A stretch of 64,000 nucleotides of DNA from Candidatus Poribacteria bacterium (GCA_965232235.1 OZ246960.1:1132479-1196478), one strand, 5' to 3'; positions 8,850-59,757 are shown, counted from the stretch's first letter. A program made the numbers and translations. The notes: generated by a model not told the origin, from the letters alone.

Positions 8850-9830
8850 TGTCTCCAATAGACTGCAGAACTGTTACTTGGATTCACCCCATCCTCAATT
8901 CTTGGTTCCGCTCGCCACACATCTATGCGGCTTCCACTATTCCACCAATCAGCCGAACCCGTAGGTTGGGTTGAACTATCCTGCCCATTAACACAGTACA
9001 GTTGGTAGGAGCGACCTCCTGGTCGCGATTCGATTGAACCAACCGACTGATTACGGAGAGCGATAGAAAATTCCCCGCCGAATGAACACTGCCCTCCGTA
9101 GGGGCGAGGTTCCCTCGCCCGATATTTGGCAGGTGAAATCAACCGAGCCCGTAGGTTGGATGGTGACACGCGAATCCCAACGGTAGGAGATCAACTGAGT
9201 GGATAGCGAAGGCGATAGAGATCCATCAAGCGAGTGAATAACGAGGGCGATAGAATTCCTCTCCGAATCGCGACCCCTTACGGTGCTATAGGGATCCTGA
9301 ATAGCGCGCGCGATAGAGTTCTCGTGCCTACCATCTCTTGTAGGGTGCGCATGGCGCACCAGCCTTGGAGAGCGCCAGCGGCGCGAAAGGTGCATAGCAA
9401 CACCAAGCCGCTCTAAATCAAAGCCCCAGAGGGGCGACAGAGATCCATCAACCGACTGATTAAGAAGCGCGGTAGCTAACCCCGAAAGAAATCCGACACA
9501 AATTCCCAAGCCGAATGAACAATGCCCTCCGTAGGGGCGAGGTTCCCTCGCCCGATATTTGGCAGGTGATATCAACCAAGCCTGTAGGTTGGGTTGTGCC
9601 ACGCGAAACCCAACGGTAGGAGATTAAACGAGTGAATAACGAGTGCGATAGAATTCTTCTCCGAATCGCGACCTCTTTCGCTCCAGCGGAGCGTCATGTC
9701 GATAGAACGCGGCTATATAACTGTTTTCCGCTCCAGCGGAGCGCCATGCGAGGCCGTCTCAATTGTTCTCCTCAAACTATTGAATCCCCTATCGATTCCA
9801 ATCGTCAATCATAAACTCAAAGATGAAAGC
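8850..9830. repeat. repeat-dense non-coding region (about 1 kb) built from short interspersed words and GTAGG-headed hairpins
   Basis: Multiple copies of 'GATCAAxCGAxTGxATA', 'GCGATAGA(G/A)(A/T)TC', 'CCGTAGGGGCGAGGTTCCCTCGCCCGATATTTGGCAGGTGA' (twice, at ~9100 and ~9530) and 'GTAGGTTGGGTTG'. The ORFs called here (8762-9169, 9051-9602) are built from repeats and are not credible genes. Confidence 0.6.
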
Positions 9831-9927
9831 CCTTTATTCTTGCGACAAAACTTGGATTCGATAAGGGTTGAACACCTACCGAGAAAACCACTAAGGTTCA
9901 TAATATCTCACGATTGCCTCGACTCGC

Positions 9928-11892
9928 CTACGAATCATGCTGCGCCTTGTACTCGATAGCTTTGCCGACCAAATAAATCAACTCCACAACCTGTTCGTTG
10001 TCGAATTCCGGGAATATGCCCTTGACTACCCGGCGCACCTCCTCCAAACTTCCGTCCTTTGCCCAGTAGCTCTCCCGCAGAATCTCGGCGAATTCTGCCA
10101 CCGCCGCCGTCAAGCGAAACGGCGCGGAAGCCGTCTCGAACGATTCATGCAGATCCGATGAAGAGATGTCTTTTCCAACTTCGGTGACCTTCTGGCTATC
10201 GGGATCGGCGTAGCGAATCGAAGCGGTCGCGATTTTACCGGACGCCCCTTCGTGGAGTTTGACCTCATACAGCGCGGTCACGCTGTGTCCCGAGCCGACC
10301 TCCCCGGCGTCAACGCTGTCATCGCGGAATTGGTGGTTTTCGAGGTATCGGTTCTCATATCCGAGCAGGCGGAAACGGCTGACAACTTCCGGATTGAAAT
10401 CGACTTGAATCTTGGCGTCTTTGGCGATGACCTGCAGCGTCCCCGTCAAATCTTCAACAAAGATGCGCCTCGCCTCGCTGAGCGTGTCAACATAGGCGTA
10501 GTTTCCGTTTCCTGCGTTCGCGAGTTTCTCCATGAGGACGTCGTTGTAGTTCCCCATCCCGAACCCGACGGTCGACAATGTGATTCCGCGCTTGACATGC
10601 GCGCGTATCTCCTTCAGTATCTCTTCCGGCCCCGTTTGACCGACATTGGCGACACCGTCCGAGCAAAGAATCACCCGGTTGATGTGATCGACCTCCGAGT
10701 TGCGCCAGGCGAGGTCGTACCCGATGCGCAGCCCCTCTTCGGCGTTGGTCGATCCATCCGGATGCAGGGAATCGATGGCAGTCAAAATCTCGGCGCGTCG
10801 GTTGACTCCCGTATGCGGCAACACGCGCCTTCCCCGCGAACCGTAGACGACGATGCCCACTTTGTCTGTAGGTCGAAGTTCATCCACAAGAAGCCTTAAC
10901 GCCCGCTTCACCAATCCCAAACGGTTTTCCATCGACATCGAACCGGATACGTCAACCACAAAGGTAAGCGTCGCGTCCTTTCGGTCTTGGTCGGAAATCA
11001 CGCGACCCTTCAATCCGATTCGCAGTAAATGGGTGCGCTTGCTATCGGCAAATATTGACGGCGCGCCCTCAAGGTGGATGGCGAATGCGCCCTCGGTCGG
11101 GGAGGTGTAGTCGTATTTGAAGGCATTGACAAACTCCTCCACGCGCACCGCTTCCGACGGGGGCAGGTGGCCTTCCGTCAAGTACCGGCGTGCAACCGAA
11201 TATGAGGCGGTATCCACATCCATCGCGAACGTCGAGAGGTGTTCGTCCTCCGTGTCAAGGAAGGGATTCACGCCGCTGCCCTTAAAGTACATATCCGGAT
11301 ACGCGGCAGCGTTTGGCGGTTTGAGTTGGGGAGCCATTCGATGGAGTGATTCTACCGGCACTGCTGATACACGCGACTTCGCGGAAAAAGGTGACTTCGC
11401 GGAAAAAGGTGGCTGCGCGCCTATCGCCTCCACCATAGCCTGTCCTCTGCGAGGAACGGTTACCTTCACCTCAACGTGTGTTTTCGGCGTGGACTTTGTA
11501 GATTCCGGAGTGTTCTTGGGACTATGGTTGGAAGAAGAGGGAACCGCCATGTGTCTACTTATCTGCGATGGCTGAGCGCCTGATGCTTCTATGCGCGCCA
11601 CCTTTGAGGAAAACTCTAACACTGCAGTTGCCTGGTAATTGGAAACCGCCCGCATTGCAAGTGGAGGTCTGCGTTCCCCATGCGGCGATGGCTGCGCGCC
11701 TATCGCCTCCCTCAAATTCAGTGCTTTGCGTGCTTTCGGTTTAGGAGGCAACTTTGGCGAAAGGAAATCTATGCTCATCGAATCATTCTGCTGTGGGGTT
11801 TTCGTCACCCAATAGGCGCCAATAAGCAACACGATGGCGGTGTGAATCATCAACGAAGCAGTTAACGCGCTCGACAGTTTCTTGAATTTCAT
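9928..11892 (-). CDS. YfbK-like von Willebrand factor type A domain protein with N-terminal membrane anchor
   Basis: 654 aa. N-terminal TM/signal 'MKFKKLSSALTASLMIHTAIVLLIGAYWV'. vWA-N region 'DTEDEHLSTFAMDVDTASY'. MIDAS motif 'VVDVSGSMS'. Internal 'IGAQPS' repeats in the linker. Confidence 0.7.
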   Translation of the reverse strand: MKFKKLSSALTASLMIHTAIVLLIGAYWVTKTPQQNDSMSIDFLSPKLPPKPKARKALNLREAIGAQPSPHGERRPPLAMRAVSNYQATAVLEFSSKVARIEASGAQPSQISRHMAVPSSSNHSPKNTPESTKSTPKTHVEVKVTVPRRGQAMVEAIGAQPPFSAKSPFSAKSRVSAVPVESLHRMAPQLKPPNAAAYPDMYFKGSGVNPFLDTEDEHLSTFAMDVDTASYSVARRYLTEGHLPPSEAVRVEEFVNAFKYDYTSPTEGAFAIHLEGAPSIFADSKRTHLLRIGLKGRVISDQDRKDATLTFVVDVSGSMSMENRLGLVKRALRLLVDELRPTDKVGIVVYGSRGRRVLPHTGVNRRAEILTAIDSLHPDGSTNAEEGLRIGYDLAWRNSEVDHINRVILCSDGVANVGQTGPEEILKEIRAHVKRGITLSTVGFGMGNYNDVLMEKLANAGNGNYAYVDTLSEARRIFVEDLTGTLQVIAKDAKIQVDFNPEVVSRFRLLGYENRYLENHQFRDDSVDAGEVGSGHSVTALYEVKLHEGASGKIATASIRYADPDSQKVTEVGKDISSSDLHESFETASAPFRLTAAVAEFAEILRESYWAKDGSLEEVRRVVKGIFPEFDNEQVVELIYLVGKAIEYKAQHDS

Positions 11893-12469
11893 GATATGTC
11901 CTCCGATATTTGGATAGAAAGGATGGAAGCGCGGAAGGTTCGAAGATTCCTTTCCACACCGTCCGTGGTTTGATGATTGTTAGTTGGATTAGTCGAAAGG
12001 AGAGCAAGGAACGTGCCACGAGAAAAGGAGCGGATTACGCCGCGTTTTCGCACCTTGTGTGCACACGATTGGGCAGGGACTGTGCGCGTATTGCCCTGCT
12101 TCGTGCAGACGAATGTGATGGTAATTGTCCAGATTTAATGCAACAAAGCACAGGAGTTGTGCTTCATTGCAAACAGCAGAGATACTTGACAATCGCCATT
12201 ACACTCTTGTAGGGTGCAATCCCCATCGATTTCGTAGGTTGGGTTGAACGGAAATCCGAAAAGAAATAGCCCATAGAAAGAAGACATCTGACGTTACAAT
12301 CGACCCAAAACGCGGGACATTAAAGTGAAACCCAACTCCTGTATCAGATCGGCTGAGACCGAGCGAATAAATCAATTTATCCGATATTCAGCGCAAATTT
12401 CACGCCGCATGTAGGAGGGAATTCCGATTCCCAACTTGTCGCGATTCGGAGGAGATTTCACTGATTCTC

Positions 12470-12498
12470 GTTGGCATCGGATCCAAAATGTGATACGA
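12470..12498 (+). promoter_or_regulatory. conserved promoter of PhyH paralog 1
   Basis: TTGGCA (12470-12475), 17-nt spacer, TACGAT (12493-12498). About 30 of 40 nt are shared with the upstream region of paralog 2 at 20768-20796. Confidence 0.45.
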
Positions 12499-12578
12499 TG
12501 GTTTTGTGTTTGCCGAGGGGCATCAAGATGGCGGCGATGCCGCAGTTCGGCAGGCTAAACGACATGAGGAGGATTAAC

Positions 12579-13532: not shown

Positions 13533-13557
13533 CCAAATCGTGTAGCTCCAGGCGATT

Positions 13558-16113
13558 TCATTTACTGACCAACATCCTCCGACTCGCCCTAAAATCCCCT
13601 GCCGCAAGCGTGCAAAAATACACGCCCGTCGCAACAACTTCCCCGCGTTCATTCCGTCCGTCCCAATACGCCGCGCGGTCCCGGCTCCGATACACACCCG
13701 CCGGCTGGAAGCCCACCGCCAATGTCCGAACCACCCGCCCGTGCACGTCATAGACTGTCAGCCTGATGTCCGCCGCTTCCCTCAGCTGATACGGTATCCA
13801 CGTTTCAGGATTGAACGGATTCGGGTAATTCGGCAACAGAGCCGTCTCGCTCGGAATGCTTGACTCCCGTGTCAACGTCATCAAGAGCCGTTCAAGCGCG
13901 AGAATCCCACTCTGTACGGTTGGATCTGCCGTCTCCAACCCCTCAGCATCAGCCAACCACCTCCGTACAGTCTCCGCCTTGAGCGCCCCAAGTCCATCCG
14001 CGCGGCTGGGCGGCGACGCCGCCGCATGTCCGAACGCCCCCGCCACCAACTCCAAATCGTGAAGGTTCACCACCCCATCCCCGTTGATATCCGCGTCGTT
14101 TTGTCCCATTTGCCCAACATTGGCGGCGACCAACACCAAGTCCAGGATGTTTACCACGCCATCCTGATTTACATCCGTTGCGAGCGCTTTAACATTGATT
14201 GTATCGCGTTTCAAGTCCCATAGTAGAATTGTGCCATCGTGACTCCCACTAGCAAGCGTTAGCCCATCGGGAGAGAAGGCAACGGAATCGACACTACTCG
14301 ATTGCCCCTCAAGGGTGCGCAGGTGTTCGCCAGTACGGACATCCCATAAACGGATCGTGCCGCGGTCGCCTACCCGCCAACTCCCACTCCCACTAGCAAG
14401 CGTGGATCCATCGGGAGAGAACGCAATGCAATGGATCCCCGACCAACGCGTGTGTGTAATGAAGATCCGCCGGTGTTCACTCGTACGGGTATCCCACAGC
14501 CGAATCGTATTGTCCCGTCCCCCGCTTGCAAGCGTAAGTCCATCCGGCGAAAACGCAACGGCAGTGACCTGGCGCGTATGTCCCTCAAGGATTTGCAAGC
14601 CTTTCCCAGTTCGTGCATCCCACAAACGTATCGTTGTATCGCGGCTCTCAAAGGCACCGCTGCCACTGGCAAGTTTCAAACGATCGGGAGAAAATGCCAG
14701 GGTAGTGACATCTCCCCTATGCCCCCTAAGAATCTGAAGGATTTCCCCGGTGCGGGTATCCCACAACCGGATTTTATTGTCCTTGCCGCCGCTAGCAAGC
14801 GTCAACCCATCGGGAGAGAAGACCACAGAATACACGCTAGAATGGACATTGTACCTATTGCCCTCAAGGGTATGTAGGTCGCCCCAGGTACGAGTATCCC
14901 ACAACCGAATCGTGTTGTCGCCCCACCCACTTCCGCTGGCAAGCGTTAATCCATCCGGGGAAAAAGCAACTGAATGAACCTGACCTGTATGTCCTTTGAG
15001 CGCGTGAAGCCTTTCTCCGGTATGGACATTCCACAGGCGAATCGTACCGTCCGAACTCCCGGCGATTGTAAGCCCATCGGGGGAAAATGCAACGGAGGTG
15101 ACTGGAACCCCATGTCCATCCAAGGTCAGCAGGGATTCGCCAGTGCGAACATCCCAAAATCGAACTGTATTGTCCCAACGCCCGATGGCAAGCGGGAGTC
15201 CGTCAGGGGAGAACGCTAGGGACAGAACCGAATGTCCTTCATAGGTCTGCAGACCTTCCCCAGTACGGACGTTCCAAAACCGAATTGTATTGTCTCTACT
15301 CCCGCAGACTAGTGTTAACCCATCGGGAGAGAATGCAAGGGACGTGACCCCATCTGTATGCTCTTGAAGAGTCAGCAAGCCTTCGCCGGTGCGCACATCC
15401 CACAACCGGATTGTATTGTCGTCACTCGCACTGGCAAGCGTAAATCCATCCGGAGAGAACACTACCGATGTAACCGAATCTGTGTGCCTCTCCAAGGTGC
15501 GAAGGCTTTCGCCAGTCCGGAAATCCCATAGCTGAATTGTATCGTCGCGACTTGCGCTGGCGAGTGTGCGCCTGTCAGGGGAAAACGCAACGGAGGTAAC
15601 CACATCGGTATGCCCCTCAAGGGTTCGCAGGTGCGTCCCTGACCGCGTGTCCCACAAGCGGATTGTATCGTCCCAACCCCCGCTGGCTAACGTAGATCCA
15701 TCCGGGGAGAAGGTTACAGACGTGACCCAAATCCCATGGTCGAGGGTGTGTCTGTGTTCCCCGGTGCGGGCATCCCACAAAAGAATCGTATCATCCCAAC
15801 TCCCACCGGCAAGGGTGAGGCCATCGGGCGAGAACGCGACAGAACTGACCCAACCCGTATGCCCCGTGAGCAAGGAAAGCTCGGCACCGGAATTCGCATC
15901 ATACAGCCAAATACCGATGCTGGTTGCGACCGCTAGCAGGGCGCCGTCTGGCGAATATGCAACATTGCCAAATATCCAACCTTTGCCCAGTCGCATTTTG
16001 GCGCCTTCGGGGAGTTCCCATTGTTGTGGGTCTTGGGCGAGGGTGTTGAGTGTGAGAAGGATGGCGAGGAAGGGAAGGATTAGCTTGGAAATTATGTGTT
16101 TTCTGTTCAACAT
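13558..16113 (-). CDS. secreted WD40 beta-propeller protein with dockerin repeat pair and T9SS C-terminal sorting domain
   Basis: Signal peptide 'MLNRKHIISKLILPFLAILLTLNTLAQ'. About 18 WD40 units ('GHTxxVxSVAFSPDGxTLASGSxDxTIRLWD'). Dockerin 'DVNQDGVVNILDLVLVA...DINGDGVVNLHDLELVA'. C-terminus 'LLPNYPNPFNPETWIPYQL...AAYWDGRN...GVYFCTL' is a Por/T9SS CTD. Confidence 0.85.
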   Translation of the reverse strand: MLNRKHIISKLILPFLAILLTLNTLAQDPQQWELPEGAKMRLGKGWIFGNVAYSPDGALLAVATSIGIWLYDANSGAELSLLTGHTGWVSSVAFSPDGLTLAGGSWDDTILLWDARTGEHRHTLDHGIWVTSVTFSPDGSTLASGGWDDTIRLWDTRSGTHLRTLEGHTDVVTSVAFSPDRRTLASASRDDTIQLWDFRTGESLRTLERHTDSVTSVVFSPDGFTLASASDDNTIRLWDVRTGEGLLTLQEHTDGVTSLAFSPDGLTLVCGSRDNTIRFWNVRTGEGLQTYEGHSVLSLAFSPDGLPLAIGRWDNTVRFWDVRTGESLLTLDGHGVPVTSVAFSPDGLTIAGSSDGTIRLWNVHTGERLHALKGHTGQVHSVAFSPDGLTLASGSGWGDNTIRLWDTRTWGDLHTLEGNRYNVHSSVYSVVFSPDGLTLASGGKDNKIRLWDTRTGEILQILRGHRGDVTTLAFSPDRLKLASGSGAFESRDTTIRLWDARTGKGLQILEGHTRQVTAVAFSPDGLTLASGGRDNTIRLWDTRTSEHRRIFITHTRWSGIHCIAFSPDGSTLASGSGSWRVGDRGTIRLWDVRTGEHLRTLEGQSSSVDSVAFSPDGLTLASGSHDGTILLWDLKRDTINVKALATDVNQDGVVNILDLVLVAANVGQMGQNDADINGDGVVNLHDLELVAGAFGHAAASPPSRADGLGALKAETVRRWLADAEGLETADPTVQSGILALERLLMTLTRESSIPSETALLPNYPNPFNPETWIPYQLREAADIRLTVYDVHGRVVRTLAVGFQPAGVYRSRDRAAYWDGRNERGEVVATGVYFCTLAAGDFRASRRMLVSK

Positions 16114-16259
16114 TGTCGGTCCTATTATGGTAAAGTGTTGGGTTTCACTCGAATTGCGGCGATTTGGCGCGGAATGGAACATCGGACGTTTGCTTGGCGT
16201 GCGTGAATTCGCTTGGATTTTCGCTCAACCCAACCTACGAGCTCGCAATCTGAAAGGCT

Positions 16260-16400
16260 GGTGGGCAGGGGATCTCTATCGCCCTCACTATCCGTTCGGT
16301 TGATCCTATTCGGTCACTTGATCCTTAATCAGTCGGTTGAGGGATTTACTATCGCGCTCGCCATCCACTCGCTTGATCCCAACCTACGGGCTGGCATTTT
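16260..16400. repeat. interspersed word-family copies (inverse orientation), then palindrome box
   Basis: 'GATCTCTATCGCCCTCACTATCCGTTCGGTTGATCC...TACTATCGCGCTCGCCATCCACTCGCTTGATCC'. Confidence 0.55.
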
Positions 16401-16408
16401 CAAAGGCT

Positions 16409-16425
16409 GGTGGGCGGTGCCCACC
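16409..16425. repeat. conserved palindrome GGTGGGCGGTGCCCACC inside a 30-nt conserved box
   Basis: 'AAAGGCTGGTGGGCGGTGCCCACCCTACA' recurs at 16401-16430, 52081-52110 and 59698-59727. Confidence 0.55.
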
Positions 16426-16503
16426 CTACAATAAGAGAATCCATGCGAAAACGGGAAATCGAAATCAAAATTGGAGAATGCATCGGCCTGGTTTCCAGAG
16501 AAT

Positions 16504-19029: not shown

Positions 19030-19481
19030 CAGTCTCCTTTCTATCTCACTGACTAGGTTCTATCGGCATTTGACTAATTGAACCCATTTCTATTCCGAGT
19101 CTTCGACCTAATGTGCCTAAAGGTGATTTGGGATAGTCCTAAATATCCAGCGTCTCGCGCGACCGTATCTCGTAGGGGCGAGGTTCCCTCGCCCAATAGG
19201 GTTGGTAGACCTAATCCCATCGGATTGAGAGATGCCCAAGGTAATACATATTAAAACCAGTTTATACAGTTCCTTCGCTTAATTCAAGAAACCAACATGT
19301 AAAAGAGTTCGGGGTAGTTTTAGTGATTTGTCCGAGGCTTGTAGCAGTTCTCAAGTTCGTGCCAGCAAAATGTCAACACGTCCTTGTGTAGCAATCCGGA
19401 GTAATTCATGTCAATGTAACCGAGGACGGGTAAGACGCCCCTTCGACATCAAGGTTGTCATGTCTTAGAGGGAAGAGAAAA

Positions 19482-49349: not shown

Positions 49350-49585
49350 GATTGAAAACCTCCTTAAGTTCCAAATGTCAGAATTTTGAAGAAAATGGTA
49401 ATTTCCGATTGATAAACATGGTAAAATTGAACTAGTAAACAGTTGTCTAATCGAAGAGATGTCCATGCACCGCAAGACCCATCCGCGACTCATATGGATT
49501 TGCGGCGAGCGCCGGAAATCTCTTTCTTCCGTTTCCAGTAGCGTTGATACTCTTCATATTTTTGGCGCGAGGAGTAGAACCAACC

Positions 49586-51832: not shown

Positions 51833-52088
51833 CGATTGATTCTCCTCGCTGCCACGCTTAAAGCCTGTTTGAACAACCGGTGGCAGAGCCATTATTGAAA
51901 TATTGCAGGAAGTTTTTTCAGGTTTCTTCTTGTATGCTACAAGCCTGCGGGATCTCTATCGCACTCGCTATCCACTCGCTTGATGGATCTGTAAGGGATT
52001 TCTATCGCCTTAATATCTCTATCGTGTGCCCTACCCGGTCACCTGATCTATCCGTTCAGTCGATCTCGTCTAGGGGCTTTTAAAGGCT

Positions 52089-52105
52089 GGTGGGCAGTGC
52101 CCACC
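52089..52105. repeat. GGTGGGCAGTGCCCACC palindrome copy
   Basis: Second copy of the 30-nt conserved box. It sits beside repeat-family words at 51940-52080. Confidence 0.5.
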
Positions 52106-52145
52106 CTACAGATATACTTGGGGCGCGGAATGCATGAGTCCTATT

Positions 52146-54428
52146 CTACTTACCTACCAACATTTTCCGCGTGGCGGTGAATTCTCCCGCAGTCAGCGTG
52201 CAGAAATAGACGCCATTCACTACTGTCTCTCCCTGCTGATTTCGTCCGTCCCAATATGCCGCGTGACCTCGCTCGGTGTAGAATCCCGCTGGTTGATACC
52301 CCAAATCAAATTGCCGCACCAACATACCTTTCGCGTCATAGACGTTGAGCGTCACCTTGGCGTCGTCCGCTAGATGATACGGTATCCATGTCTCCGGGTT
52401 GAATGGATTCGGGTAGTTTGGCAGGAGCGCCGTTTCAGTCGGAGCTACGGACTTGGATGGAGGTGAACGTTCCGGGAGTTGCTTCGTCTCATCGCTGACC
52501 GACACTCGCTTGGTGTCGCCCCACGTTGTTGAACGCATCAGCTCCCACAGCAAGACTGTGCCGTCGTAGCTTCCACTCGCAAGCGTGAGACCATCGGGAG
52601 AAAAGGCGATGAATTTCACCGATTCGGAATGCCCTTCAAGCGTCCGTAGGTGTTCCCCAGTGACAGAATTCCACAGACGAACCGTGTCGTCCCCACTTCC
52701 ACTCGCGAGCGTTAGACCGTCAGGAGAAAACGCTACGGACGCCACCCCGCTGGTATGTCCTTCAATCGTTTGCAGGCGTTCTCCAGTGATTACGTCCCAC
52801 ATACGAACCGTGTCATCCCCACTGCCGCTGGCGAGCGTGAGTCCATCGGCTGAGAACGCCACGGATGTCACGCTTTCTCTATGTCCCACAAGAGCGTGCG
52901 TAGCTTTCGCCGTGCGGATATCCCATAGACGAATTGCGGCGTCGCCCCAACTGCCGCCGCTCGCTAGCATTGCACCATCGGGCGAGAACGCTAGGGTAGC
53001 GACAGTGCCCAAATGTCCCACAAGAGTTTCCAGCCTCTCACCCGTGCGGACATTCCATAAATGAACCATGCTGCCATACCCGCTGGCAAGCCATCTTCCG
53101 TTGGGCGAGAGCGCCACCGCATCGACATCTCCCCATCCACTCCACTCCATGAGTATATGCAAACTCTCACCGGTACGCGCATCCCACAAACGAGCTGTAA
53201 GGTCAATTCCGCCGCTACTGGCAAGTATGGAGCCATCGTGCGAAAATGCGAGTGACCGGACTGTAAATTCATGCCCCACCAAGCTCTGATAGTTTTGCCC
53301 GGAAAGCACATCCCACAGACGAACCGTTTCGTCACCATGTGCCGTAGCGCTCGCGAGTGTAAGACCATCGGGAGAATACGCGATGGAATCCACGGGCATC
53401 GTATGTTCCGCAATGGTCAGAATATCTTCTCCGGTGGGCACATCCCATAAGCACACCCTCCCGTCCCGACTACTTCCGCCCGCAATTATCAACTCATCCG
53501 ACGAAAACCGTATGAAATCGGCAGCACCCGTGTGCGCATAAAACGCCTTTAGATGTTCCCCTGTGTGGACATCCCACAAACGTACCGGGCTGAGTGCGCC
53601 TGGACCCCCACTTGCAAGCGTAAGACTGTCGGGCGAGAACGATATGCAGTTCACACCGCCCGAACGTTCTTCAAGCGAATGCAGGAACTCTCCGGTGCGC
53701 ACATCCCACAAGCGAATATTGCCGCCCCCTCCTGCAAGCGTTTGTCCATCTTTCGAGAACGCTACCGCAGTGACACTACGTGTATTCCCCTTGAGCGCGT
53801 GCAGTAACTCACCGTTGTGGACATTCCACAGACGAATTGTGCTCACCTCCCATCCACCCCCACTGGCAAGTGTGGAACCACCGGGCGAAAACCGGACAAA
53901 TTCGACCGAACGCGTATGGCCGGACAGCGTTCGCAAGAACTCGCCGGTGCGAACATCCCATAAACGAACCGTCTGGTCGCCGTAACCCCCGCCGCTGGCA
54001 AGCATTAAGCCATCGGGCGAGAACGCCACGGATTCGACCGAGCGAGTATGTCCCTCAAGTGTAAGCAGATGCGTCCCGGTGCGCACATTCCACAGACGGA
54101 CTGTTTTGTCTCTCGACCCTCCGCCGCTGGCAAGCGTAAGTCCATCCGGCGAGAACGCTACGGCATACACTCTATCTGAATGCCCGGTGAGAAGATTGAC
54201 TTCTGCGCCAGTTTTCGCGTCATAGAGCCATACGCCAATGCTACTCGGTACAGCAAGCAGGGCACCGTCCGGGGAATAGGCAATCTTGCCGGTTATCTCA
54301 CCCTTGCCGAGCCGCATCTTGGCACCTTCGGGCAATTCCCACCGGTTATAGTCCTGGGCATGACTGCTCTGCAGAAACATAGCACAAACTATCAGAGGGC
54401 TGAGCTTGAATAACCTAGATTTCTTCAT
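52146..54428 (-). CDS. secreted WD40 beta-propeller protein with T9SS CTD
   Basis: Signal peptide 'MKKSRLFKLSPLIVCAMFLQSSHAQ', WD40 units, Por CTD. Confidence 0.8.
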   Translation of the reverse strand: MKKSRLFKLSPLIVCAMFLQSSHAQDYNRWELPEGAKMRLGKGEITGKIAYSPDGALLAVPSSIGVWLYDAKTGAEVNLLTGHSDRVYAVAFSPDGLTLASGGGSRDKTVRLWNVRTGTHLLTLEGHTRSVESVAFSPDGLMLASGGGYGDQTVRLWDVRTGEFLRTLSGHTRSVEFVRFSPGGSTLASGGGWEVSTIRLWNVHNGELLHALKGNTRSVTAVAFSKDGQTLAGGGGNIRLWDVRTGEFLHSLEERSGGVNCISFSPDSLTLASGGPGALSPVRLWDVHTGEHLKAFYAHTGAADFIRFSSDELIIAGGSSRDGRVCLWDVPTGEDILTIAEHTMPVDSIAYSPDGLTLASATAHGDETVRLWDVLSGQNYQSLVGHEFTVRSLAFSHDGSILASSGGIDLTARLWDARTGESLHILMEWSGWGDVDAVALSPNGRWLASGYGSMVHLWNVRTGERLETLVGHLGTVATLAFSPDGAMLASGGSWGDAAIRLWDIRTAKATHALVGHRESVTSVAFSADGLTLASGSGDDTVRMWDVITGERLQTIEGHTSGVASVAFSPDGLTLASGSGDDTVRLWNSVTGEHLRTLEGHSESVKFIAFSPDGLTLASGSYDGTVLLWELMRSTTWGDTKRVSVSDETKQLPERSPPSKSVAPTETALLPNYPNPFNPETWIPYHLADDAKVTLNVYDAKGMLVRQFDLGYQPAGFYTERGHAAYWDGRNQQGETVVNGVYFCTLTAGEFTATRKMLVGK

Positions 54429-54459
54429 CAGGTATTTCTCTTTCTTGAAACCGTGAATT

Positions 54460-56754
54460 TTACCTGCCGACCAACATCTTCCGCGTGGCGGTGAAACCAT
54501 CGGTGGTCAGTGTGTAGAAATACACGCCATTTGCCACCAGCTCACCCTGCCGATTGCGCCCGTCCCAATATGCCGCGTGTTCGCGGCTCCGGTACGCACC
54601 GGCAGGCTGGTGTCCCATTTCCAGTGTCCGAACCAACTGTCCTCTCATGTCACAAATCGTCAACACCACCTCCGAGGGCTTTCCCAGATGGTACGGTATC
54701 CACGTCTCCGGGTTAAACGGATTCGGGTAGTTTGGTAGAAGCGCCGTGTCCGCAGCAGTTAAGAGAGTAACTGAAGGTGAAAGTTCTATTGATTGCCCCG
54801 ACCCGCCGACGAACTCCGATTGCTTTATCTCACCCCAAGCCGTCACTTGCCTCACATCCCACAGTAGAACCGTACCGTCTGTGCTCGCGCTAGCCAAGGT
54901 TGAGCCATCGGGCGAGAAAGCCACGCTGGTGACTGACAACCAATTCCAGTTGAAGGTCTTCCCGATCTCCCCGGTGTGTACATCCCGTAATCGAATCACG
55001 GCGTCCCGGCTCCCACTGGCAAGCATACCCTCACGGCGCGAAAACGCAATAGCATTGAGACCACCGATATTATCACCAAGGATTCTCAGACCTTTCCCGG
55101 AGTGTACATCCCACAATCGGATGGTATCGTCTCGACTCCCGCTGGCAAGCATGGAACCGTCCGACAGGAACACTACGGAAATGACATCATCTGTGTGTCC
55201 CTCCAGCATCCCCAAATATTTTCCTGTACGTGCGTCCCACAAACGAATCGTGTCGTCCCGACTTCCGCTGGCAAGTGTGAATCCGTCCGGAGAAAACACT
55301 ACGGACGAAACCGCGTTTACGTGTCGACCGAGGGTATGTATCCCTTTTCCCGTGCCCGAATCCCACAACCGAACTGTGTTGTCCCAACCTCCACTGGCGA
55401 CCGTGCGCCCGTCGGGTGAGAACGCCACCGAATACACCTCGCCCGCATGCGCCTCAAGCGTATGTAGCCGTTCTCCGGAGTGGATATCCCATAACCGAAC
55501 CGTTCCGTCGTATTCTCCGCCGCCGCTGGAAAGCGTATACCCATCGGGGGAAATAGCCACACAACTCACTCCGTGCGTATGTCCATCAAGTGTTTGCTTG
55601 TGCTCCCAAGTTCGTGCATCCCACACACGAATCGTACCGTAAACGCCGCTGTGTGCAAAGAGATGTCCATCGAGCGAAAAAGCAATAGCGCCTTCCGTGT
55701 ACGGATATCCCCCATGATATCCCTCAACGGTATGCTTGTGTTCCCGATTGCGCATATTCCAAAAACGAATCGTACCGTCCCAACTTGCGCTGACAAGCGT
55801 GAGCCCCTCGGGCGAGATTGCTACAGAAGTCACCCTATCCGTATGTCCGGTTAGCGTCTTTAGGTGTTCTCCCGTATGCCCATCCCACAATCGTATGGTC
55901 TCGTCCCGACTACCACTGCAAAGTACCTGTCCATCCGGGGAGAACGCTACCGAGGTTACTTCGCTCACATGCCCCTCAAGCGTATGCAGGTGTTCACCCG
56001 TACGCGCATCCCACAAACGCACTGCGTTGTCATACCAACCGCCAGCGCTGGCAAGCGTTGAACTGTCAGGCGAGAACGCTAACCAATTGGATTCATCCTT
56101 ATGCCCCTCAAGCGTATGCAGGTGCTCACCCGTGCGGACATCCCACAAGCGAATTGTCTCGTCCCGGCCGTCTGCGCTGGCTAGCATGGAACCGTCCGGC
56201 GAGAACGCCACCGCATTCACCGAAGTGTTGTGACCGTGGAACGAGCGCAGGTGGTCACCTGTGCCGACATCCCACAGACTGATTGAATCGGCACGCTCTG
56301 AGCCGATACTATTTCCGCTAGCGAGGGTAGAGCCGTCGGGAGAAAACGCCAGAGCAGTTATATAAAGCGCATGACCTTTGAGCGTTCGCCGGTGCTCACC
56401 CGTATGAGCGTCCCACAGACGAATTGTAGGGTCGTCCCTGCCGCGGCCGCCGCTAGCAAGCGTGGCGCCGTCCGGAGAAAACGCGACGGAACCGACCCGA
56501 GCCGTATGCCCTGTGAGCAGGTTGAGCTCGGTGCCGGTCCCGGCATCATAAATCCAAATACCGGCATTGCTCGCGATCGCGATCCGAGTCCCGTCGGGTG
56601 AATAGGAAATATTACTGGTTATTTCGCCCTTCCCGATTCGCAATTTCGCGCCTTTGGGCAAGCCCCATCGTGTATAATCTTGGGCGAAACTGCGCGGTAC
56701 AAACAGAGCAACAGCGAGCAATAGGTAAAGTTTGAACCCCCATTTACTCCTCAT
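54460..56754 (-). CDS. secreted WD40 beta-propeller protein with T9SS CTD
   Basis: Signal peptide 'MRSKWGFKLYLLLAVALFVPRSFAQ', WD40 units, Por CTD. Confidence 0.8.
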   Translation of the reverse strand: MRSKWGFKLYLLLAVALFVPRSFAQDYTRWGLPKGAKLRIGKGEITSNISYSPDGTRIAIASNAGIWIYDAGTGTELNLLTGHTARVGSVAFSPDGATLASGGRGRDDPTIRLWDAHTGEHRRTLKGHALYITALAFSPDGSTLASGNSIGSERADSISLWDVGTGDHLRSFHGHNTSVNAVAFSPDGSMLASADGRDETIRLWDVRTGEHLHTLEGHKDESNWLAFSPDSSTLASAGGWYDNAVRLWDARTGEHLHTLEGHVSEVTSVAFSPDGQVLCSGSRDETIRLWDGHTGEHLKTLTGHTDRVTSVAISPEGLTLVSASWDGTIRFWNMRNREHKHTVEGYHGGYPYTEGAIAFSLDGHLFAHSGVYGTIRVWDARTWEHKQTLDGHTHGVSCVAISPDGYTLSSGGGEYDGTVRLWDIHSGERLHTLEAHAGEVYSVAFSPDGRTVASGGWDNTVRLWDSGTGKGIHTLGRHVNAVSSVVFSPDGFTLASGSRDDTIRLWDARTGKYLGMLEGHTDDVISVVFLSDGSMLASGSRDDTIRLWDVHSGKGLRILGDNIGGLNAIAFSRREGMLASGSRDAVIRLRDVHTGEIGKTFNWNWLSVTSVAFSPDGSTLASASTDGTVLLWDVRQVTAWGEIKQSEFVGGSGQSIELSPSVTLLTAADTALLPNYPNPFNPETWIPYHLGKPSEVVLTICDMRGQLVRTLEMGHQPAGAYRSREHAAYWDGRNRQGELVANGVYFYTLTTDGFTATRKMLVGR

Positions 56755-56830
56755 TCGATTGTTCTCCTTGCGATGCGTATCTATTCTCACAGCCTGCTCA
56801 TTTTTTGCGCCGTGCAGACAGTATTGTCGC

Positions 56831-59119
56831 TTATTTCACAAGATTCATTCGGCGAGTGCTGCGAGATTCGCCCGACTGCAGCGTGTAAAAATACAATCCG
56901 CTCGAAACGGTCTCGCCCGCATCGTTCCGGCCATCCCAATACGCTGCTTCCGACGAAGAGAGATAATCACCTGCGGACTTGGTGCCGAGATTAAGCGTCC
57001 GCACCTGACTCCCCGACGCATCGTGAATCCGGATGTTTACGTTGGCTAACTCGCTCAGTCGATACGGTATCCAGGTTTCCGGGTTGAACGGGTTGGGAAA
57101 GTTCGCCAGTAACACAGGTTTCTTGATCCATCCCAAGAGAACGGGTTCAGGAAGAAGGAATGGGGTGACATCCCAAATCTGCGGCGAAGGGTAGGTAAAA
57201 CGCGTAAGTAGCACCGACCCATCCCGACTGACATCCGCGTATTCTGGCAAAATTGGGTGTTCAAGGGGCTGGTTGGCACGCCAATTCCAAATCTGTAAAC
57301 CATCCTCTCCGTTCAAGAACAGGTAGCGCCCATCTGCACTGAAATGTGCAGGACCTTTGCCGTCAATCCGAAACAACTGTTCCGGCGCTTGTTCACCAAG
57401 TTGCCATCCCACAACCGCGTCGTACGTTGCAACAACTAAAATCGGGGGCGCAGCATGCGGATGAAACACGACGTTTGAACCGTAAAAACAACTGACGGGG
57501 ATTAATGGGAACCATGAGTAGCGATAGCTATATTCGTGTTCGCCCTGTTCCCACAAGTGCAATCGCGTACGCCTGTCCGATGCGACAAGATAGCGGTCAT
57601 CTTCGCTGAACGCAAAGCAGTATCCTGGTTCATTTCCCAGTAACTGGCGACGGTGCGGCTCATCAACATCCACTACCACCGTCGCGTTATTCCAATAGGC
57701 GCGTGTCGCAATACGGTCTCCACGATTACTAACTGCAGTCGCCATCAGCCCTCCTCCATCGAGAAGACGCGCCTGTAAACTACCGGTATATATGTCCCTG
57801 ACTTCCGTGCCGTCTGTGTCCAAGCCGACCGCAAATCGCCGACTATCCCGAGAAATCGCTAACGCATGACTATATTTTTGTGTCCCTTCGAACACGACAT
57901 GCCGCACCGAGCGTGATGGCACATCCCAAACCTTAATCAACGTGTCGTATACCTGCACGAGCGATTTACCGTCCGGGCTGAGACCGGCCCAAGCACCACG
58001 CCCGTAACCTGCCCATAGCCTGAGTTGCCGATTCTGTTTCAGGTCCCAAAGAACGGCAACCTGATCGTAATACTGCAAAATCGCGCGGCTTTCGTCGGGA
58101 GACACCGAGACGTGCTTGAGGGCGGCCGGCTCCGCGCGGAACTCGTTGATTAACGTGTTTGTCTCGACCTCCCAGACGCGTAGCCGGTCATTGAACGTAT
58201 TCCTATGGGCCCGCTGCGGCGTTCTGGTTCCCACGTACAGCCGCCGGCTATCTCCGCTGAAAACGAGTTCGAACACCTCGCCCTCATTGTAAGCTCCGAA
58301 ATCTCCGTTCCTCAGCGTTCGCGCCAGTTGGCGGGTCTCGGCGTTCCACAGGTAGACCTTCGTCGACCCCACCTCGGTCGTGGCAATCCATTGACCTTCA
58401 GGACTGTAAGCAACCTTGGTGACCCAATCCTCATGACCTTCCAAATGCCCGGCAAGCTTTCCTGTCTCAAGATCCCAAATCTCGGCATCCGGACGTTTCG
58501 ATCCGACAACGAGAAAGCGATCATCGGGACTGAAGGCTATAGAGAAGACGAATGGTGGTCGGTCATTGCACCTTGAACTGCTCCAGTTACCCCGCCAGTT
58601 ACTGCCAGAGCGACTATAACACTCATCGACAGGTCTCCTCTTATCCTCCAGCCGACCAACCCATTCACCCGTCTGCCAATCCAGCAAGAAAATATCGTCT
58701 GTCCTGCCATTTAACGCAAGAAGCGGCTGTGACCTACCGAATGCAACGCGAGACGGATAATCCAACACTCCCGCCGTCCACAATCCAAGAGATGCGAATT
58801 CCCATTCTCCGAGTTTCTCTTGCCCGTTAATGTCCCAGAGTTCGACCATGTCCTGTCTTCTGATAACAAGCAGCCTGCCATCCGGACTGACAATCACCAA
58901 CCCTAAGAATTCCGAGCTTTCGGCGAAGTTTGCAAGCACTACGTCGTTGTCCGGATCCACAATCTCTATATGCTTTGGCATAACGCGTAGCATATTCCCG
59001 TTAGGAAGGAGAGTAAGCTGGCGCAGGTACCCTTTCCCGATAGTTCCAATCGGCTCAATCGCCAGCGCTTCGCCGACGATGAGCAAACACATAAACACAA
59101 TAACGACAAATATTTTCAT
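56831..59119 (-). CDS. secreted divergent WD40-like beta-propeller protein with T9SS CTD
   Basis: Signal peptide 'MKIFVVIVFMCLLIVGEALA'. Looser WD repeats ('VWDLKQNRQLRLW', 'IWDLETGKLAGHLEGHEDWV'). Por CTD 'LANFPNPFNPETWIPYRL...AAYWDGRND'. Confidence 0.7.
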   Translation of the reverse strand: MKIFVVIVFMCLLIVGEALAIEPIGTIGKGYLRQLTLLPNGNMLRVMPKHIEIVDPDNDVVLANFAESSEFLGLVIVSPDGRLLVIRRQDMVELWDINGQEKLGEWEFASLGLWTAGVLDYPSRVAFGRSQPLLALNGRTDDIFLLDWQTGEWVGRLEDKRRPVDECYSRSGSNWRGNWSSSRCNDRPPFVFSIAFSPDDRFLVVGSKRPDAEIWDLETGKLAGHLEGHEDWVTKVAYSPEGQWIATTEVGSTKVYLWNAETRQLARTLRNGDFGAYNEGEVFELVFSGDSRRLYVGTRTPQRAHRNTFNDRLRVWEVETNTLINEFRAEPAALKHVSVSPDESRAILQYYDQVAVLWDLKQNRQLRLWAGYGRGAWAGLSPDGKSLVQVYDTLIKVWDVPSRSVRHVVFEGTQKYSHALAISRDSRRFAVGLDTDGTEVRDIYTGSLQARLLDGGGLMATAVSNRGDRIATRAYWNNATVVVDVDEPHRRQLLGNEPGYCFAFSEDDRYLVASDRRTRLHLWEQGEHEYSYRYSWFPLIPVSCFYGSNVVFHPHAAPPILVVATYDAVVGWQLGEQAPEQLFRIDGKGPAHFSADGRYLFLNGEDGLQIWNWRANQPLEHPILPEYADVSRDGSVLLTRFTYPSPQIWDVTPFLLPEPVLLGWIKKPVLLANFPNPFNPETWIPYRLSELANVNIRIHDASGSQVRTLNLGTKSAGDYLSSSEAAYWDGRNDAGETVSSGLYFYTLQSGESRSTRRMNLVK

Positions 59120-59490
59120 TATTTCCCTTTTAACGCTGTGGTTGGCATTATGGCCATGCTGCTATCTCAGAGCGGATACCTTACTAAACACGCAAATGCT
59201 ATGCCACGAGCTGATAATGCCGCGAGACTTGCCACAGTGCGGGTTTCTCGCGTTATGCGGCGTACTCGCGGGGATTCAAACTGTTCAGTTTCTGGACACG
59301 ATTGTTCAATAATGGTTTAACCAGTGTCCGAAAAAGGGCAGTGAGGCGTCTGTTGATAGGTTTGGATTACCACTTATTGAGGATCGGCGAAGGCAGGCTT
59401 ATCGGAAGGATAAGGGATTAACGATGGAAAATCCGGCTAGTTTTTGAGGATGATTACAGAAATATCACTGGGCGGAAGGACAGTCAAATC

Positions 59491-59518
59491 TTGACTTTTG
59501 GCTGTTCGATGCTATAAT
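59491..59518 (+). promoter_or_regulatory. strong sigma70-like promoter (TTGACT-16-TATAAT), likely for rlmB
   Basis: TTGACT 59491-59496, TATAAT 59513-59518. About 240 nt upstream of the rlmB ATG. The leader contains repeat-family copies at 59590-59727. Confidence 0.5.
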
Positions 59519-59589
59519 GGACCGAGTGCTACCTGTCGGTAATAGTTGGATTTTCGGTTTCCGGGTCTTGTATTGCAATTCTGCTGTAT

Positions 59590-59700
59590 TCAGTCGATAG
59601 ATCGTTGTCCACTCGGTTGAGGGATCTACTATCGCACTCGCTATTCACTCGCTTTAGGGATCTACTATCGCGCTCGCTATTCACTCGCTTGATCCTACAA
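59590..59700. repeat. tandem copies of the interspersed word family inside the rlmB leader
   Basis: 'GAGGGATCTACTATCGCACTCGCTATTCACTCGCTT' then 'TAGGGATCTACTATCGCGCTCGCTATTCACTCGCTTGATCC', followed by the GGTGGGCGGTGCCCACC palindrome box. Confidence 0.6.
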
Positions 59701-59757
59701 GAAATGGTGGGCGGTGCCCACCCTACAGACTTTCATTCCAAGAATCAACGCCTTCTA

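Follow-up and report, generated by a model that had tools for sequence, protein, structure and literature searches.

What is the short sequence that recurs between the genes of a 64,000-nt stretch of a Candidatus Poribacteria genome (referred to as the window here), and how did it come to be there? A sequence-only reading had described a pervasive family of short, degenerate interspersed repeats. A profile search and a covariance model (CM) run over the 64-kb window confirmed that this family, family A, is real. They yielded 27 full units of 35 nt scoring 34 bits or more, with the next match below 15 bits, and no units in shuffled sequence. About a dozen partial modules accompany them. The 38-nt core proposed for the family has no exact copy, and it recurs with 1 to 3 mismatches at 25204-25241, 25099-25136, and 24774-24811, compared to 0 matches in 100 shuffles; stem-blind patterns gave 8 and 14 exact matches versus 0 expected. 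As claimed, the units occur in both orientations (12 on the plus and 15 on the minus strand) and often as tandem pairs, copies sharing one spacer being nearly always co-oriented and often adjacent. All 15 intervals listed earlier hold at least one full unit, although the total is 16 spacers and not "at least 18." Every unit of the window lies in a spacer or at a gene end, and across the sampled genomes 14 of 285 units fall inside crude long ORFs. The notion that the repeats fill the intergenic spaces was too strong: family A is present in most long spacers (15 to 16 of the 24 with at least 100 nt), yet it makes up 969 of 9,915 intergenic nucleotides (about 10%), and short repeats of any kind account for about 20 to 33%. 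Nor did a particular density near genes for secreted repeat proteins emerge, given that 9 of 13 spacers beside WD40, LRR, or PD40 genes carry units versus 6 of 11 others.

The units range from isolated copies to compound arrays. The first (7690-7724, minus strand, CM 53.2 bits) is followed by a plus-strand cluster containing full units with diverged tails at 9037-9071 (37.8 bits) and 9446-9480 (34.9 bits), two adjacent full units at 9189-9223 and 9224-9258 (54.3 and 47.2 bits) with GGTAGGA before and CTCCGAATCGCGAC, a REP-B remainder, after them, the 3' two thirds of a unit at 9297-9321 (nhmmer E=3e-5), and a full unit behind a GGTAGGA head at 9622-9656 (47.4 bits). On the minus strand, the array at 16271-16378 is preceded by GTAGGTTGG and contains full units at 16344-16378 and 16271-16305 (47.1 and 52.6 bits) with two partial hairpin modules found by nhmmer between them (16306-16340); a full unit at 20349-20383 (44.9 bits) and the array at 20703-20754, a 5' half-module (20737-20754) joined to a full unit (20703-20737, 53.9 bits), share this strand. 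The plus strand carries a 5' half-module with a full unit (24777-24811, 55.3 bits) at 24760-24811, overlapping the stop of the gene at 23964-24773, as well as full units at 25102-25136 (55.2 bits), labelled closest to the proposed core, at 25207-25241 (54.8 bits), matching that core with one mismatch, and, in diverged form, at 27442-27476 (38.2 bits). Further minus-strand copies are a full unit at 32002-32036 (42.7 bits) with an extra tail at 31985-31998, the weakest accepted unit at 34741-34775 (34.3 bits), which was absent from the earlier list, and a full unit at 45089-45123 (52.0 bits) with a hairpin module at 45124-45144. Two plus-strand units (36852-36886 and 36888-36922, 49.5 and 37.0 bits) begin 5 nt past the stop of the gene at 34780-36846, and the plus-strand array at 46324-46387 places one or more half-modules and a full unit (46353-46387, 44.0 bits) behind a GGTAG head. 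The last minus-strand arrays are at 51951-52048, with full units at 52014-52048 and 51951-51985 (37.9 and 51.4 bits), and at 59602-59694, where full units at 59660-59694 and 59624-59658 (50.3 and 38.8 bits) and a hairpin module stand directly behind a GTAG head. Beside this last array lies a GTAG-tagged REP hairpin, GTAGGGTGGGCACCGCCCACC (59706-59726, minus strand), which recurs on the same strand at 16409-16429, 52089-52109, and 4874-4894. As the sequence-only reading anticipated, the repeats create spurious ORFs: Pfam has no match for those at 9051-9602, 8762-9169, 24905-25402, and 16337-16699, and the SpoU ORF at 59605-60525 is overextended at its 5' end across units.

Each unit of 34 to 35 nt consists of a leader, (G)ATCAA, a hairpin, and a tail, GCGATAGAGATC, with the consensus GATCAA-SY-GA-SY-GRATA-RS-GA-RS-GCGATAGAGATC. 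In the hairpin, 27 of the 35 nt, a tandem G.A/A.G that is conserved separates two Watson-Crick pairs from two further pairs, and these close a loop of G-R-A-T-A; in addition, ATC at positions 2 to 4 is able to pair with GAT at positions 26 to 28. The four stem pairs (7:23, 8:22, 11:19, and 12:18) are formed in 93.5% of cells among the window copies and, among 135 distinct copies taken from 13 genomes, in 98.8%. Double-sided stem changes number 35 versus 9.4 in shuffles for the window and 207 versus 32 for the distinct copies. Slid stem registers are 14 to 62% paired, matches to the stem-blind patterns are 91 to 97% paired versus 52 to 84% expected, and RNAalifold independently recovers the hairpin. 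G9A10/G20A21 are invariant, as are the loop and the unpaired bases across the 13 genomes, while the stem exists in 88 variants among 242 hairpins, common to several genomes. The copies are not degenerate: their variable positions are the four hairpin base pairs changing in compensation. Among the distinct copies, about 49 stem cells are G:T or T:G versus about 11 that are A:C or C:A. That G:T is common and A:C rare shows that one strand folds, namely, the one reading GATCAA (the reverse strand has no fold), and indicates a single-stranded, one-strand-specific form. With RNA parameters, the folds reach -3.8 to -8.5 kcal/mol. With DNA parameters, they are marginal, at -1.6 to -2.9 kcal/mol, and do not surpass shuffled sequences; the commonest stem variant has two G:T pairs, and Z-scores of single units are unremarkable.

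The suggestion that the family is a genome-specific element is not supported. A scan of 185,579 species genomes with the stem-blind pattern gave, among the matches listed, only Candidatus Poribacteria, with at least 13 species-level metagenome-assembled genomes (MAGs) and at least 110 loci, and copies run to thousands per genome in sponge-associated Poribacteria. Viral contigs gave 0 matches to this pattern, and metagenomes gave 5 chance matches with just 1 to 2 of the 4 stem pairs formed. On the matches listed, family A is restricted to the Poribacteria lineage. No Rfam 15 family matched the window or 143 kb of unit-rich Poribacteria loci at the gathering score or at an E value of ≤1. A motif named "Poribacteria-1" may have been described.

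Units do not favor one orientation relative to genes: between co-directional genes, 71 are sense and 68 antisense. Their density is 1.22 per kb in co-directional, 1.12 in divergent, and 0.68 in convergent spacers, and they are spread along the spacers except in the final 20% ahead of start codons. Sampled chromosomes have no visible replichore-linked orientation pattern. Orthologous spacers at ∼85% gene identity have no units in common, which shows rapid turnover.

Traces of this turnover are seen in two clean pairs of filled and empty sites. In the first, at 91% identity, the array at 59602-59694 and its ortholog in L051 differ by one precise 34-nt unit, which L051 has in addition, placed within the second unit's loop; the outer unit that it splits still pairs. 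The second compares paralogous copies, GTAGGCGGGG[unit]CTATCTTGCCCCGC versus GTAGGCGGGGCATCTTGCCCCGC. Both involve blocks of 34 to 35 nt without a duplicated flank, with junctions placed to ±1 nt, as are the unit termini and the target. The bases directly 3' of inserted units are usually CC, not the host's own, and the preceding sequences vary (GTAG, GGAG, GGGG, TGCG, ATAG) around one constant G. Units also reside in other hairpins. In the window, the plus-strand array at 22139-22236, made of two hairpin modules and two tails (22150-22222; 46.1 bits for 22173-22207), sits between the REP hairpin arms GGGCGAGG...CCTCGCCCCTAC (flank duplex, -17.8 kcal/mol). The plus-strand array at 24893-24990, within the REP hairpin GTAGGCGGGA...CCCCGC (-16.2 kcal/mol), is itself nested, with a half-module (24904-24920), a full unit (24920-24954, 47.3 bits), and an outer tail (24957-24971). 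On the minus strand, the loop of GTAGGCGGGA...CCCCGCCC at 42763-42830 (-21.0 kcal/mol) holds a full unit (42779-42813, 45.8 bits). The fractions of REP hosts with a unit inside were 12/36, 7/39, 5/39, and 15/178, and flank complementarity of -16 kcal/mol or stronger was found for 24 arrays versus 6.8 after permutation. Of 259 arrays, 95 (37%) have a GTAG in the 19 nt upstream (control, 25 of 259); this GTAG is part of the host REPs, and its distance varies. Within arrays, the number of hairpins follows the number of tails (rho 0.36, p=2e-11): one hairpin goes with one tail in 63%, two with two in 61%, and three with three in 75%.

Family B, a second repeat, is present in the window in 9 copies versus 0 expected from a pattern search, with two doublets of GTAG-tagged REPs at 40012-40066 and 40164-40218 and single copies at 12411, 13482, 20625, 31897 (minus strand), and 48622 (minus strand). 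It has the GTAG head, hairpin, inverted doublet, and flanked RAYT gene of a REPIN. The latter is an intact RAYT at locus L097 of a related genome (Y1_Tnp, PF01797, E 5e-10) with 8 exact GTAG REP-B copies around it; family B REPINs form its flanks without unit arrays, and one degenerate unit is nested beside it. A RAYT fragment at L102 is flanked on both sides by units in inverted orientation. Units are absent from the 19.7 kb of four other RAYT loci (L118-L123), and the 64-kb window has neither a RAYT nor any other transposase gene. In the Poribacteria lineage, Y1/HUH transposase genes occupy conserved single-copy loci.

Given these features, we favor, at about an even chance, the reading of family A as a Poribacteria-specific, noncoding, REP/BIME-like mobile hairpin module, which probably moved via a single-stranded intermediate. 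Copies come and go as exact blocks of 34 to 35 nt with no obvious target duplication. Their preferred landing places are within existing units and just behind the 5' arm of another hairpin repeat, several GTAG-tagged REP families among them, and such landing would generate the nested arrays, (hairpin)n(tail)n. The selected form may be single-stranded DNA handled by a putative trans-acting HUH-type enzyme, for which the RAYT/Y1 transposases encoded beside GTAG REPINs in Poribacteria genomes are candidates; the element itself would be essentially selfish, with side effects on neighboring transcripts. Several findings speak against this reading. The DNA fold is marginal, the two G:T pairs of the commonest variant suit RNA better, and the 88 stem variants depart from the single-master pattern of REPINs. 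Also on this side are the lack of a transposase gene in the window, the RAYT loci without unit arrays at L097 and L118-L123, the missing replichore pattern, the ±1-nt uncertainty of termini and target, the CC that usually follows inserted units, and the small number, two, of clean filled and empty pairs. The strongest competitor, though in our estimate rather unlikely, is a putative structured RNA motif, a hairpin whose pentaloop is of the GNR(N)A type and whose internal loop is the tandem G.A; its spread in the genome would be secondary. It could be transcribed within untranslated regions (UTRs) or as separate small RNAs, and a conserved Poribacteria protein would bind it as a signal for titration, stability, or processing. 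The strand-specific covariation with frequent G:U-type pairs, the more stable RNA folds, and the invariant loop and unpaired bases are consistent with this, and many stem variants with pairing kept are expected if selection acts on every copy. Tandem sheared G.A pairs and GNRNA loops are classic protein-binding features of RNA. Yet an RNA motif sits poorly with units that are unbiased in orientation toward flanking genes, equally dense in divergent (promoter) spacers, and without positional conservation in orthologous spacers, as well as with the empty Rfam search and the unremarkable single-unit Z-scores.

Covariation also bears on the earlier suggestion of a reiterated double-stranded DNA site for a nucleoid-associated or regulatory protein, which we now consider improbable. 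ATAG is found at positions 15, 27, and about 39, so that it could face one side of the helix every ∼11 to 12 bp, and the GATC at both unit ends could serve methylation-dependent binding; spacers have 6.8 GATC per kb and genes 3.5, a twofold difference, and the units are orientation independent. However, a duplex site would not account for positions 7 to 12 covarying with 18 to 23 in Watson-Crick fashion, or for tolerating G:T and avoiding A:C; the GA/GA positions are not palindromic, and orthologous positions are not conserved. Least probable of all, with a very slim chance, is that the arrays are VNTR-like minisatellites produced by passive replication slippage or local tandem duplication without dedicated machinery. 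Neighboring units within 300 nt are mostly direct tandems (66, versus 12 convergent and 2 divergent), five near-identical 34-nt copies occur at 5796-5966 of locus L075, and Tandem Repeats Finder (TRF) detects a period of 36 nt at 59610-59692. Still, adjacent hairpins differ at 2.2 of 4 positions versus 2.3 of 4 for random pairs, with 8 of 56 identical, showing that the arrays were not made by local slippage, which would also leave the kept pairing, the insertions within unrelated REP hairpins, and the spread over 16 unlinked window spacers and hundreds across 13 genomes unexplained.

How closely the favored mobile module resembles known systems differs from case to case. GTAG-tagged REPs are imperfect palindromes of 20 to 40 bp forming a stem-loop, with an unpaired terminal GTAG in >90% of members, and lie mostly downstream of coding regions, where the neighboring genes are unidirectional or convergent; in some families, loop variants are long and self-complementary, or the repeats are placed inside other palindromes (Di Nocera et al. 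2013, PMC3733652). Like REPs and BIMEs, family A is a short imperfect hairpin with G:T tolerated in its stem, extragenic, very abundant, in both orientations, and part of mosaics with other short motifs, in genomes where bona fide REPs with a GTAG tag and RAYT genes are also present. Unlike them, it has no GTAG of its own, a stem of 2+2 pairs around the tandem G.A instead of 6 to 9 contiguous pairs, direct or nested neighbors rather than inverted dimers, and neither a preference for gene 3' ends nor an avoidance of divergent spacers. In the REPIN-RAYT system, the replicating unit is an inverted repeat pair with a short spacer (Bertels & Rainey 2011, PMC3116915; PMC3337134). Family A likewise is a nonautonomous repeat population that persists in a lineage with conserved Y1/HUH genes and requires a hairpin on one strand, and family B, two inverted GTAG REPs, is a textbook REPIN. 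However, inverted doublets of units are rare (12 of 80 neighbor pairs, mostly in one genome; tight ones at L056 only), no dominant master sequence exists, and no intact RAYT was found with units as flanks. The strand-specific hairpin, the independence from transcription, and the precise gain and loss without detectable target-site duplication recall the single-strand "peel and paste" IS200/IS605 elements and their miniature derivatives, in contrast to which the unit has one hairpin rather than distinct subterminal left- and right-end hairpins, ∼35 nt rather than >100 nt, only a preceding G instead of a conserved target tetra- or pentanucleotide, and no visible replication-strand bias in the sampled chromosomes.

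We rejected two other classes. MITEs span 70 to 300 bp, with 15- to 30-bp terminal inverted repeats (TIRs) and a target-site duplication, while the 35-nt unit, far below insertion sequence (IS) length as had been noted, has no TIRs; inverted repeats flanking it, where present, are the arms of various host REP hairpins. A CRISPR array, already dismissed earlier, has identical repeats at regular spacing with unique spacers of similar length, which is incompatible with variable stems and gaps of 1 to 300 nt between neighbors, and TRF sees a single array of 2.3 copies in the window. BOX elements of Streptococcus pneumoniae are modular (boxA-boxBn-boxC), with modules of 45 to 60 nt. Family A resembles them in being modular with a variable number of internal modules, a predicted fold, and a noncoding, dispersed location in spacers; there is no sequence relation, and BOX elements, unlike family A, neither reside in REP loops nor nest as (hairpin)n(tail)n.

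The 38-nt word quoted as the core of the repeats in the sequence-only reading occurs at three places in the window (∼24.8 to 25.2 kb) with one to three mismatches, compared with none in shuffled sequence, and an iterated nhmmer profile gave ∼42 matches in the window. Column counts define a 35-nt unit with the consensus G-A-T-C-A-A-S-Y-G-A-S-Y-G-R-A-T-A-R-S-G-A-R-S-G-C-G-A-T-A-G-A-G-A-T-C, composed of a leader, (G)ATCAA, a hairpin, and a tail. A covariance model built from 27 copies and run without filters returned 27 units at 34 to 55 bits from the window, with all else scoring at most 15 bits. Each of the 15 intervals originally listed by eye holds at least one unit, and a further unit at 34741-34775 was absent from that list. 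The view that the repeats fill most intergenic spaces stands for the number of spaces (of 24 spacers with a length of ≥100 nt, 15 to 16 contain units) and fails for their extent, since ∼10% of the intergenic bases are covered. Because of the repeats, GATC, GTAG, and ATAG are each two to three times denser in spacers than in genes throughout the window. As had been suspected, spurious ORFs arise from the repeats: several long ORFs over repeat-rich spacers have no Pfam match. The mechanically called ORF of a SpoU methyltransferase (59605-60525) starts within a unit array and shows Pfam domains from residue 63, so that its true start is probably downstream of 59700. A tRNA scan gave no match, and Rfam contained no matching family at an E value of ≤1 in the window, nor in 143 kb of loci from other Poribacteria genomes.

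The copies, described as degenerate when read by eye, proved to be structured, in that their variable positions change pairwise once the copies are sorted. Scoring the stem pairs 7:23, 8:22, 11:19, and 12:18, we found 93.5% of the cells paired in the window copies, compared with 64% after shuffling, and 35 double-sided changes, compared with 9.4; slid registers gave 24 to 62%. For 135 distinct copies from 13 genomes, the corresponding values were 98.8% versus 81% and 207 versus 32, with slid registers at 14 to 49%. Given that the 135-copy alignment had been fitted to the model, we recounted pairing on exact matches to a pattern with N at the stem positions, of which 91 to 97% were paired versus 52 to 84% expected from column composition. 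A scan of the JGI metagenome set with the stem-blind pattern, which yielded only five chance matches, served as a natural negative control: these form one or two of the four pairs and score 19 to 21 bits or fall under the reporting threshold. Between the two blocks of pairs, G9A10 and G20A21 are invariant, as in a tandem G.A/A.G internal loop; the hairpin loop reads G-R-A-T-A, and ATC (positions 2 to 4) is able to pair with GAT (26 to 28). Among 242 hairpins there are 88 stem variants, common to several genomes.

The pairs contain ∼49 distinct G:T or T:G combinations versus ∼11 A:C or C:A combinations, and the strand complementary to the GATCAA strand does not fold, indicating that the structure is read single-stranded on the GATCAA strand. 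The hairpin is thermodynamically weak, with −3.8 to −8.5 kcal/mol as RNA and −1.6 to −2.9 kcal/mol as DNA, where the parameters may undervalue G.A, so that selection or the copying process, and not stability alone, maintains the pairing. A role as terminator was rejected, as the hairpin is weak and a T-run is absent.

Widespread as sponge symbionts, Poribacteria have not been cultivated and are known solely through single-cell and metagenome assemblies. The stem-blind pattern, with 14 matches in the window versus 0 expected, was scanned over one genome per species for 185,579 species and hit at least 110 stretches in at least 13 MAGs, with every match among those listed belonging to "Candidatus Poribacteria bacterium"; IMG/VR gave no match to this pattern. 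Contrary to what had been proposed, the element is thus not specific to one genome, and its presence in 13 independent assemblies, several of them complete chromosomes assembled from long reads, also dismisses an assembly artifact. The window shares 75 to 91% identity with parts of these MAGs, showing that its genome belongs to the Poribacteria and is identical to no representative MAG, and its gene content (many WD40, LRR, cohesin/dockerin, T9SS-tail, and PhyH proteins) agrees with this assignment. In 639 kb of Poribacteria loci, the covariance model found 225 units.

With respect to enrichment 5′ or 3′ of genes, orientation was random (71 units sense and 68 antisense in spacers between co-directional genes) and a 3′-end bias absent. 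Co-directional and divergent spacers have similar unit densities, convergent spacers have a lower one, and within spacers the units are depleted only in the last fifth, directly before the next start codon. No replichore bias of orientation was visible in the sampled chromosomes, where sampling was sparse and origins were not located. Turnover of single copies is fast: orthologous spacers from three other Poribacteria loci at ∼85% gene identity (L101, L110, and L032) differ both in the units they carry and in where these lie. At 91% identity (L051), the array is kept and differs by one precise 34-nt unit, which lies within the loop of another unit. The halves of the split outer unit still pair (G7:C23, C8:G22, G11:C19, and T12:G18), and the inner unit has its own pairs. 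A second filled/empty pair comes from paralogous composite copies of ∼250 nt in the same genome that differ at one site, with the empty form GTAGGCGGGG-CATCTT-GCCCCGC and the filled form GTAGGCGGGG-[ATCAAACGAGTGAATAGCGAGTGCGATAGAGATC]-CTATCTT-GCCCCGC; flank duplication is absent from this comparison.

Units also reside in other hairpins. Across the sample, four families of GTAG-headed hairpins occur in empty and occupied forms (12/36, 7/39, 5/39, and 15/178 occupied), and the unit in an occupied hairpin always directly follows the 5′ arm. Directly upstream of arrays, GTAG shows a four-fold enrichment. In a duplex-energy permutation test, the flanks of 24 arrays were complementary at ≤−16 kcal/mol, compared with 6.8 after permutation; this test and the occupancy per REP family gave a clearer signal than an exact 7-mer test for enclosing inverted repeats, which was weak (18 versus 11.5). 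Arrays follow the grammar (leader + hairpin)n and then (tail)n, with equal numbers of the two in 63% of cases for one hairpin, 61% for two, and 75% for three. Most of what looked like orphan 5′ halves were in fact complete hairpins with another leader after them. Neighboring hairpins in arrays differ as much as random pairs do, so that arrays are juxtaposed independent copies and not products of slippage.

The window genome itself contains multiple REP classes. A second, GTAG-tagged family, family B (GTAGGAGCGATCTCCGAATCGCGAC and GTAGGAGGGAATTCCGATTCCCGAC), has nine copies in the window spacers, organized as inverted doublets (REPINs) at 40012-40066 and 40164-40218 and as single copies at 12411, 13482, 20625, 31897 (minus strand), and 48622 (minus strand). 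In another Poribacteria locus (L097, 3586-4689), eight exact family B copies lie on both sides of a 157-amino-acid ORF that matches E. coli RayT (tblastn E value of 1e-8) and Pfam Y1_Tnp (E value of 5e-10). This is the REPIN-RAYT arrangement in its classical form (PMC3116915 and PMC3337134), and, as far as the searched literature shows, such systems had not been described in Poribacteria. That literature contained nothing on Poribacteria repeats and no link of the phylum with REP, REPIN, RAYT, or MITE, and the accessible part of Weinberg 2017 does not mention Poribacteria. Other GTAG-headed hairpins, whose stems differ and covary, are common (GTAGGGTGGGCACYGCCCACC, GTAGGGGCGAGGTTCCCTCGCCC, and GTAGGGAACGCAGATCTGCGTTCCCTAC) and agree with the GTAG-tagged REP superfamily described by Di Nocera et al. 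(PMC3733652), for which long self-complementary loop variants, REPs within other palindromes, and REPs as insertion targets have been reported. GTAG(G)-headed hairpins lie at 4797-4825, 9098-9122, 9338-9365, 9530-9555, 16409-16429, 19172-19196, 52089-52109, 59706-59726, and 63952-63976; their stems stay complementary (GGTGGGC/GCCCACC, GGTGCGC/GCGCACC, GGGCGAGG/CCTCGCCC, and GGGAACGCAGA/TCTGCGTTCCC), and some are present both empty and with a 35-nt unit inserted.

Evidence tying the unit directly to a RAYT is mixed. One locus (L102) has a divergent RAYT fragment between two inverted units; its intact homologues occupy a conserved glycosyltransferase/peptidase S13 locus with no unit within 2 kb, which lowers the RAYT hypothesis. 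In the homologue of locus L118 (2085-2175), a REPIN-like GTAGGGGACGG...GGTTGTCCCTAC lies in frame inside the gene, right after the HUH motif, and is repeated upstream at 1568-1650 and 1757-1835. The L102 gene (268-600) is truncated at this point, where a 35-nt unit is found.

Taken together, the unit would be a mobile hairpin module of the REP/BIME kind, non-autonomous and lineage-specific, that a trans-acting machine may copy at the DNA level by reading one strand as a hairpin. Several observations point to such an element: unpaired bases are constant across species while the stems are free, single copies turn over fast, gain or loss of whole units is precise, units nest in hairpin loops, and their orientation is blind to transcription. 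HUH/Y1 enzymes of Poribacteria would be the obvious candidates for the machine, which our tests did not confirm. The main rival is a function at the RNA level, for which the many G:U-type pairs, the RNA-like motifs (tandem G.A and a GNRNA-type loop), and the marginal DNA fold all speak, and which is compatible with copying at the DNA level. Both a double-stranded binding site, akin to the protein-binding site suggested at first, and simple slippage are disfavored by the covariation and strand asymmetry, as well as by the dispersal of the units and their unlike neighboring modules. CRISPR, already discounted from the sequence, and MITEs were rejected as explanations, and a type III toxin-antitoxin RNA was discarded because no consistent neighboring ORF accompanies the units across 16 contexts.

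Even though the unit is classed as working like a REP, it stands outside the GTAG-tagged REP and REPIN families, given that it has no GTAG tag of its own, no inverted-doublet organization, and no 3′-end bias; its own features are that it nests, that its hairpin contains a tandem G.A, and that it resides in the loops of REPs. More speculatively, and with considerable doubt on our part, it could be the smallest self-contained bacterial mobile element yet seen, a ∼35-nt hairpin that a dedicated Poribacteria protein (an HUH enzyme or a new one) would recognize by the tandem G.A, the pentaloop, and the single-stranded bases on its flanks and would insert, with no duplication of the target, where the 5′ arm meets the loop of extruded hairpins, the unit's own included, leading to recursive nesting; and/or the hairpin could serve a conserved protein of these symbionts as a new structured RNA ligand of extreme abundance.

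Provided that the window is typical, a unit occurs about once per 2 to 3 kb, which affects assembly, the analysis of regulatory regions, and gene calling, where we met false ORFs and overextended starts. The units are also an exceptionally clean natural data set for the study of hairpin recognition, with hundreds of copies in which the stem is free, the loop and bulge are fixed, and one strand is clearly preferred, as well as a possible case of duplication-free, hairpin-loop-targeted insertion nested several levels deep. In metagenomes, they would be usable as a specific sequence marker of the Poribacteria lineage.

Several repeat structures were seen besides. Five consecutive units of 34 to 35 nt, four with identical scores, form the sole clear local tandem amplification (VNTR-like) in the sample (L075, 5796-5966). 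Tight convergent unit doublets, 14 to 20 nt apart, occur in L056 (OZ240245.1) at 1681-1759, 5475-5553, and 6336-6414; such REPIN-like doublets are rare in other genomes. A composite repeat of at least 250 nt (…CGCTCCAGCGGAGCG…ATGTCAAGG/ATGTCAATAGAA…GTAGGCGGGG…) is found repeatedly, both in single genomes and across them, and may or may not contain the 35-nt unit as an insert (L048, 7600-7860, versus L087, 3650-3900; window, ∼25000-25260). The 1.18-kb gene-free spacer at 8744-9927 consists almost entirely of repeat modules, with an internal direct duplication of ∼435 nt (9075-9160 resembles 9511-9590, and 9160-9260 resembles 9590-9660), and is not alignable with the orthologous L101 spacer.

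Among other features of the window, GC skew tracks gene orientation (positive for plus-strand and negative for minus-strand genes) and not one replichore trend. Seven large WD40-repeat genes with a 126-nt period form two clusters (13558-19029 and 46414-59119), and six of the seven share a conserved 3′ segment of ∼300 nt (family D10; 13562, 16508, 46418, 49590, 52150, and 54464) coding for a C-terminal region of the dockerin/T9SS type. Genes at 27757-31887 and 34780-36846 encode LRR proteins that bear cohesin, dockerin, and Por_Secre_tail domains. Two seemingly empty spacers hold small, unannotated-looking ORFs: one of 78 amino acids with two CxxC pairs (zinc-ribbon-like) at 7039-7275 on the plus strand, ending where a DUF805 gene starts, and one of 62 amino acids with a hydrophobic N-terminal segment and a good ribosome-binding site at 43051-43239 on the minus strand. 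Finally, an 18-nt tandem repeat of 2.5 copies within a VWA/YfbK gene (11375-11419) coincides with a 51-nt length difference from the L101 ortholog (∼2273), making it an in-frame coding VNTR.
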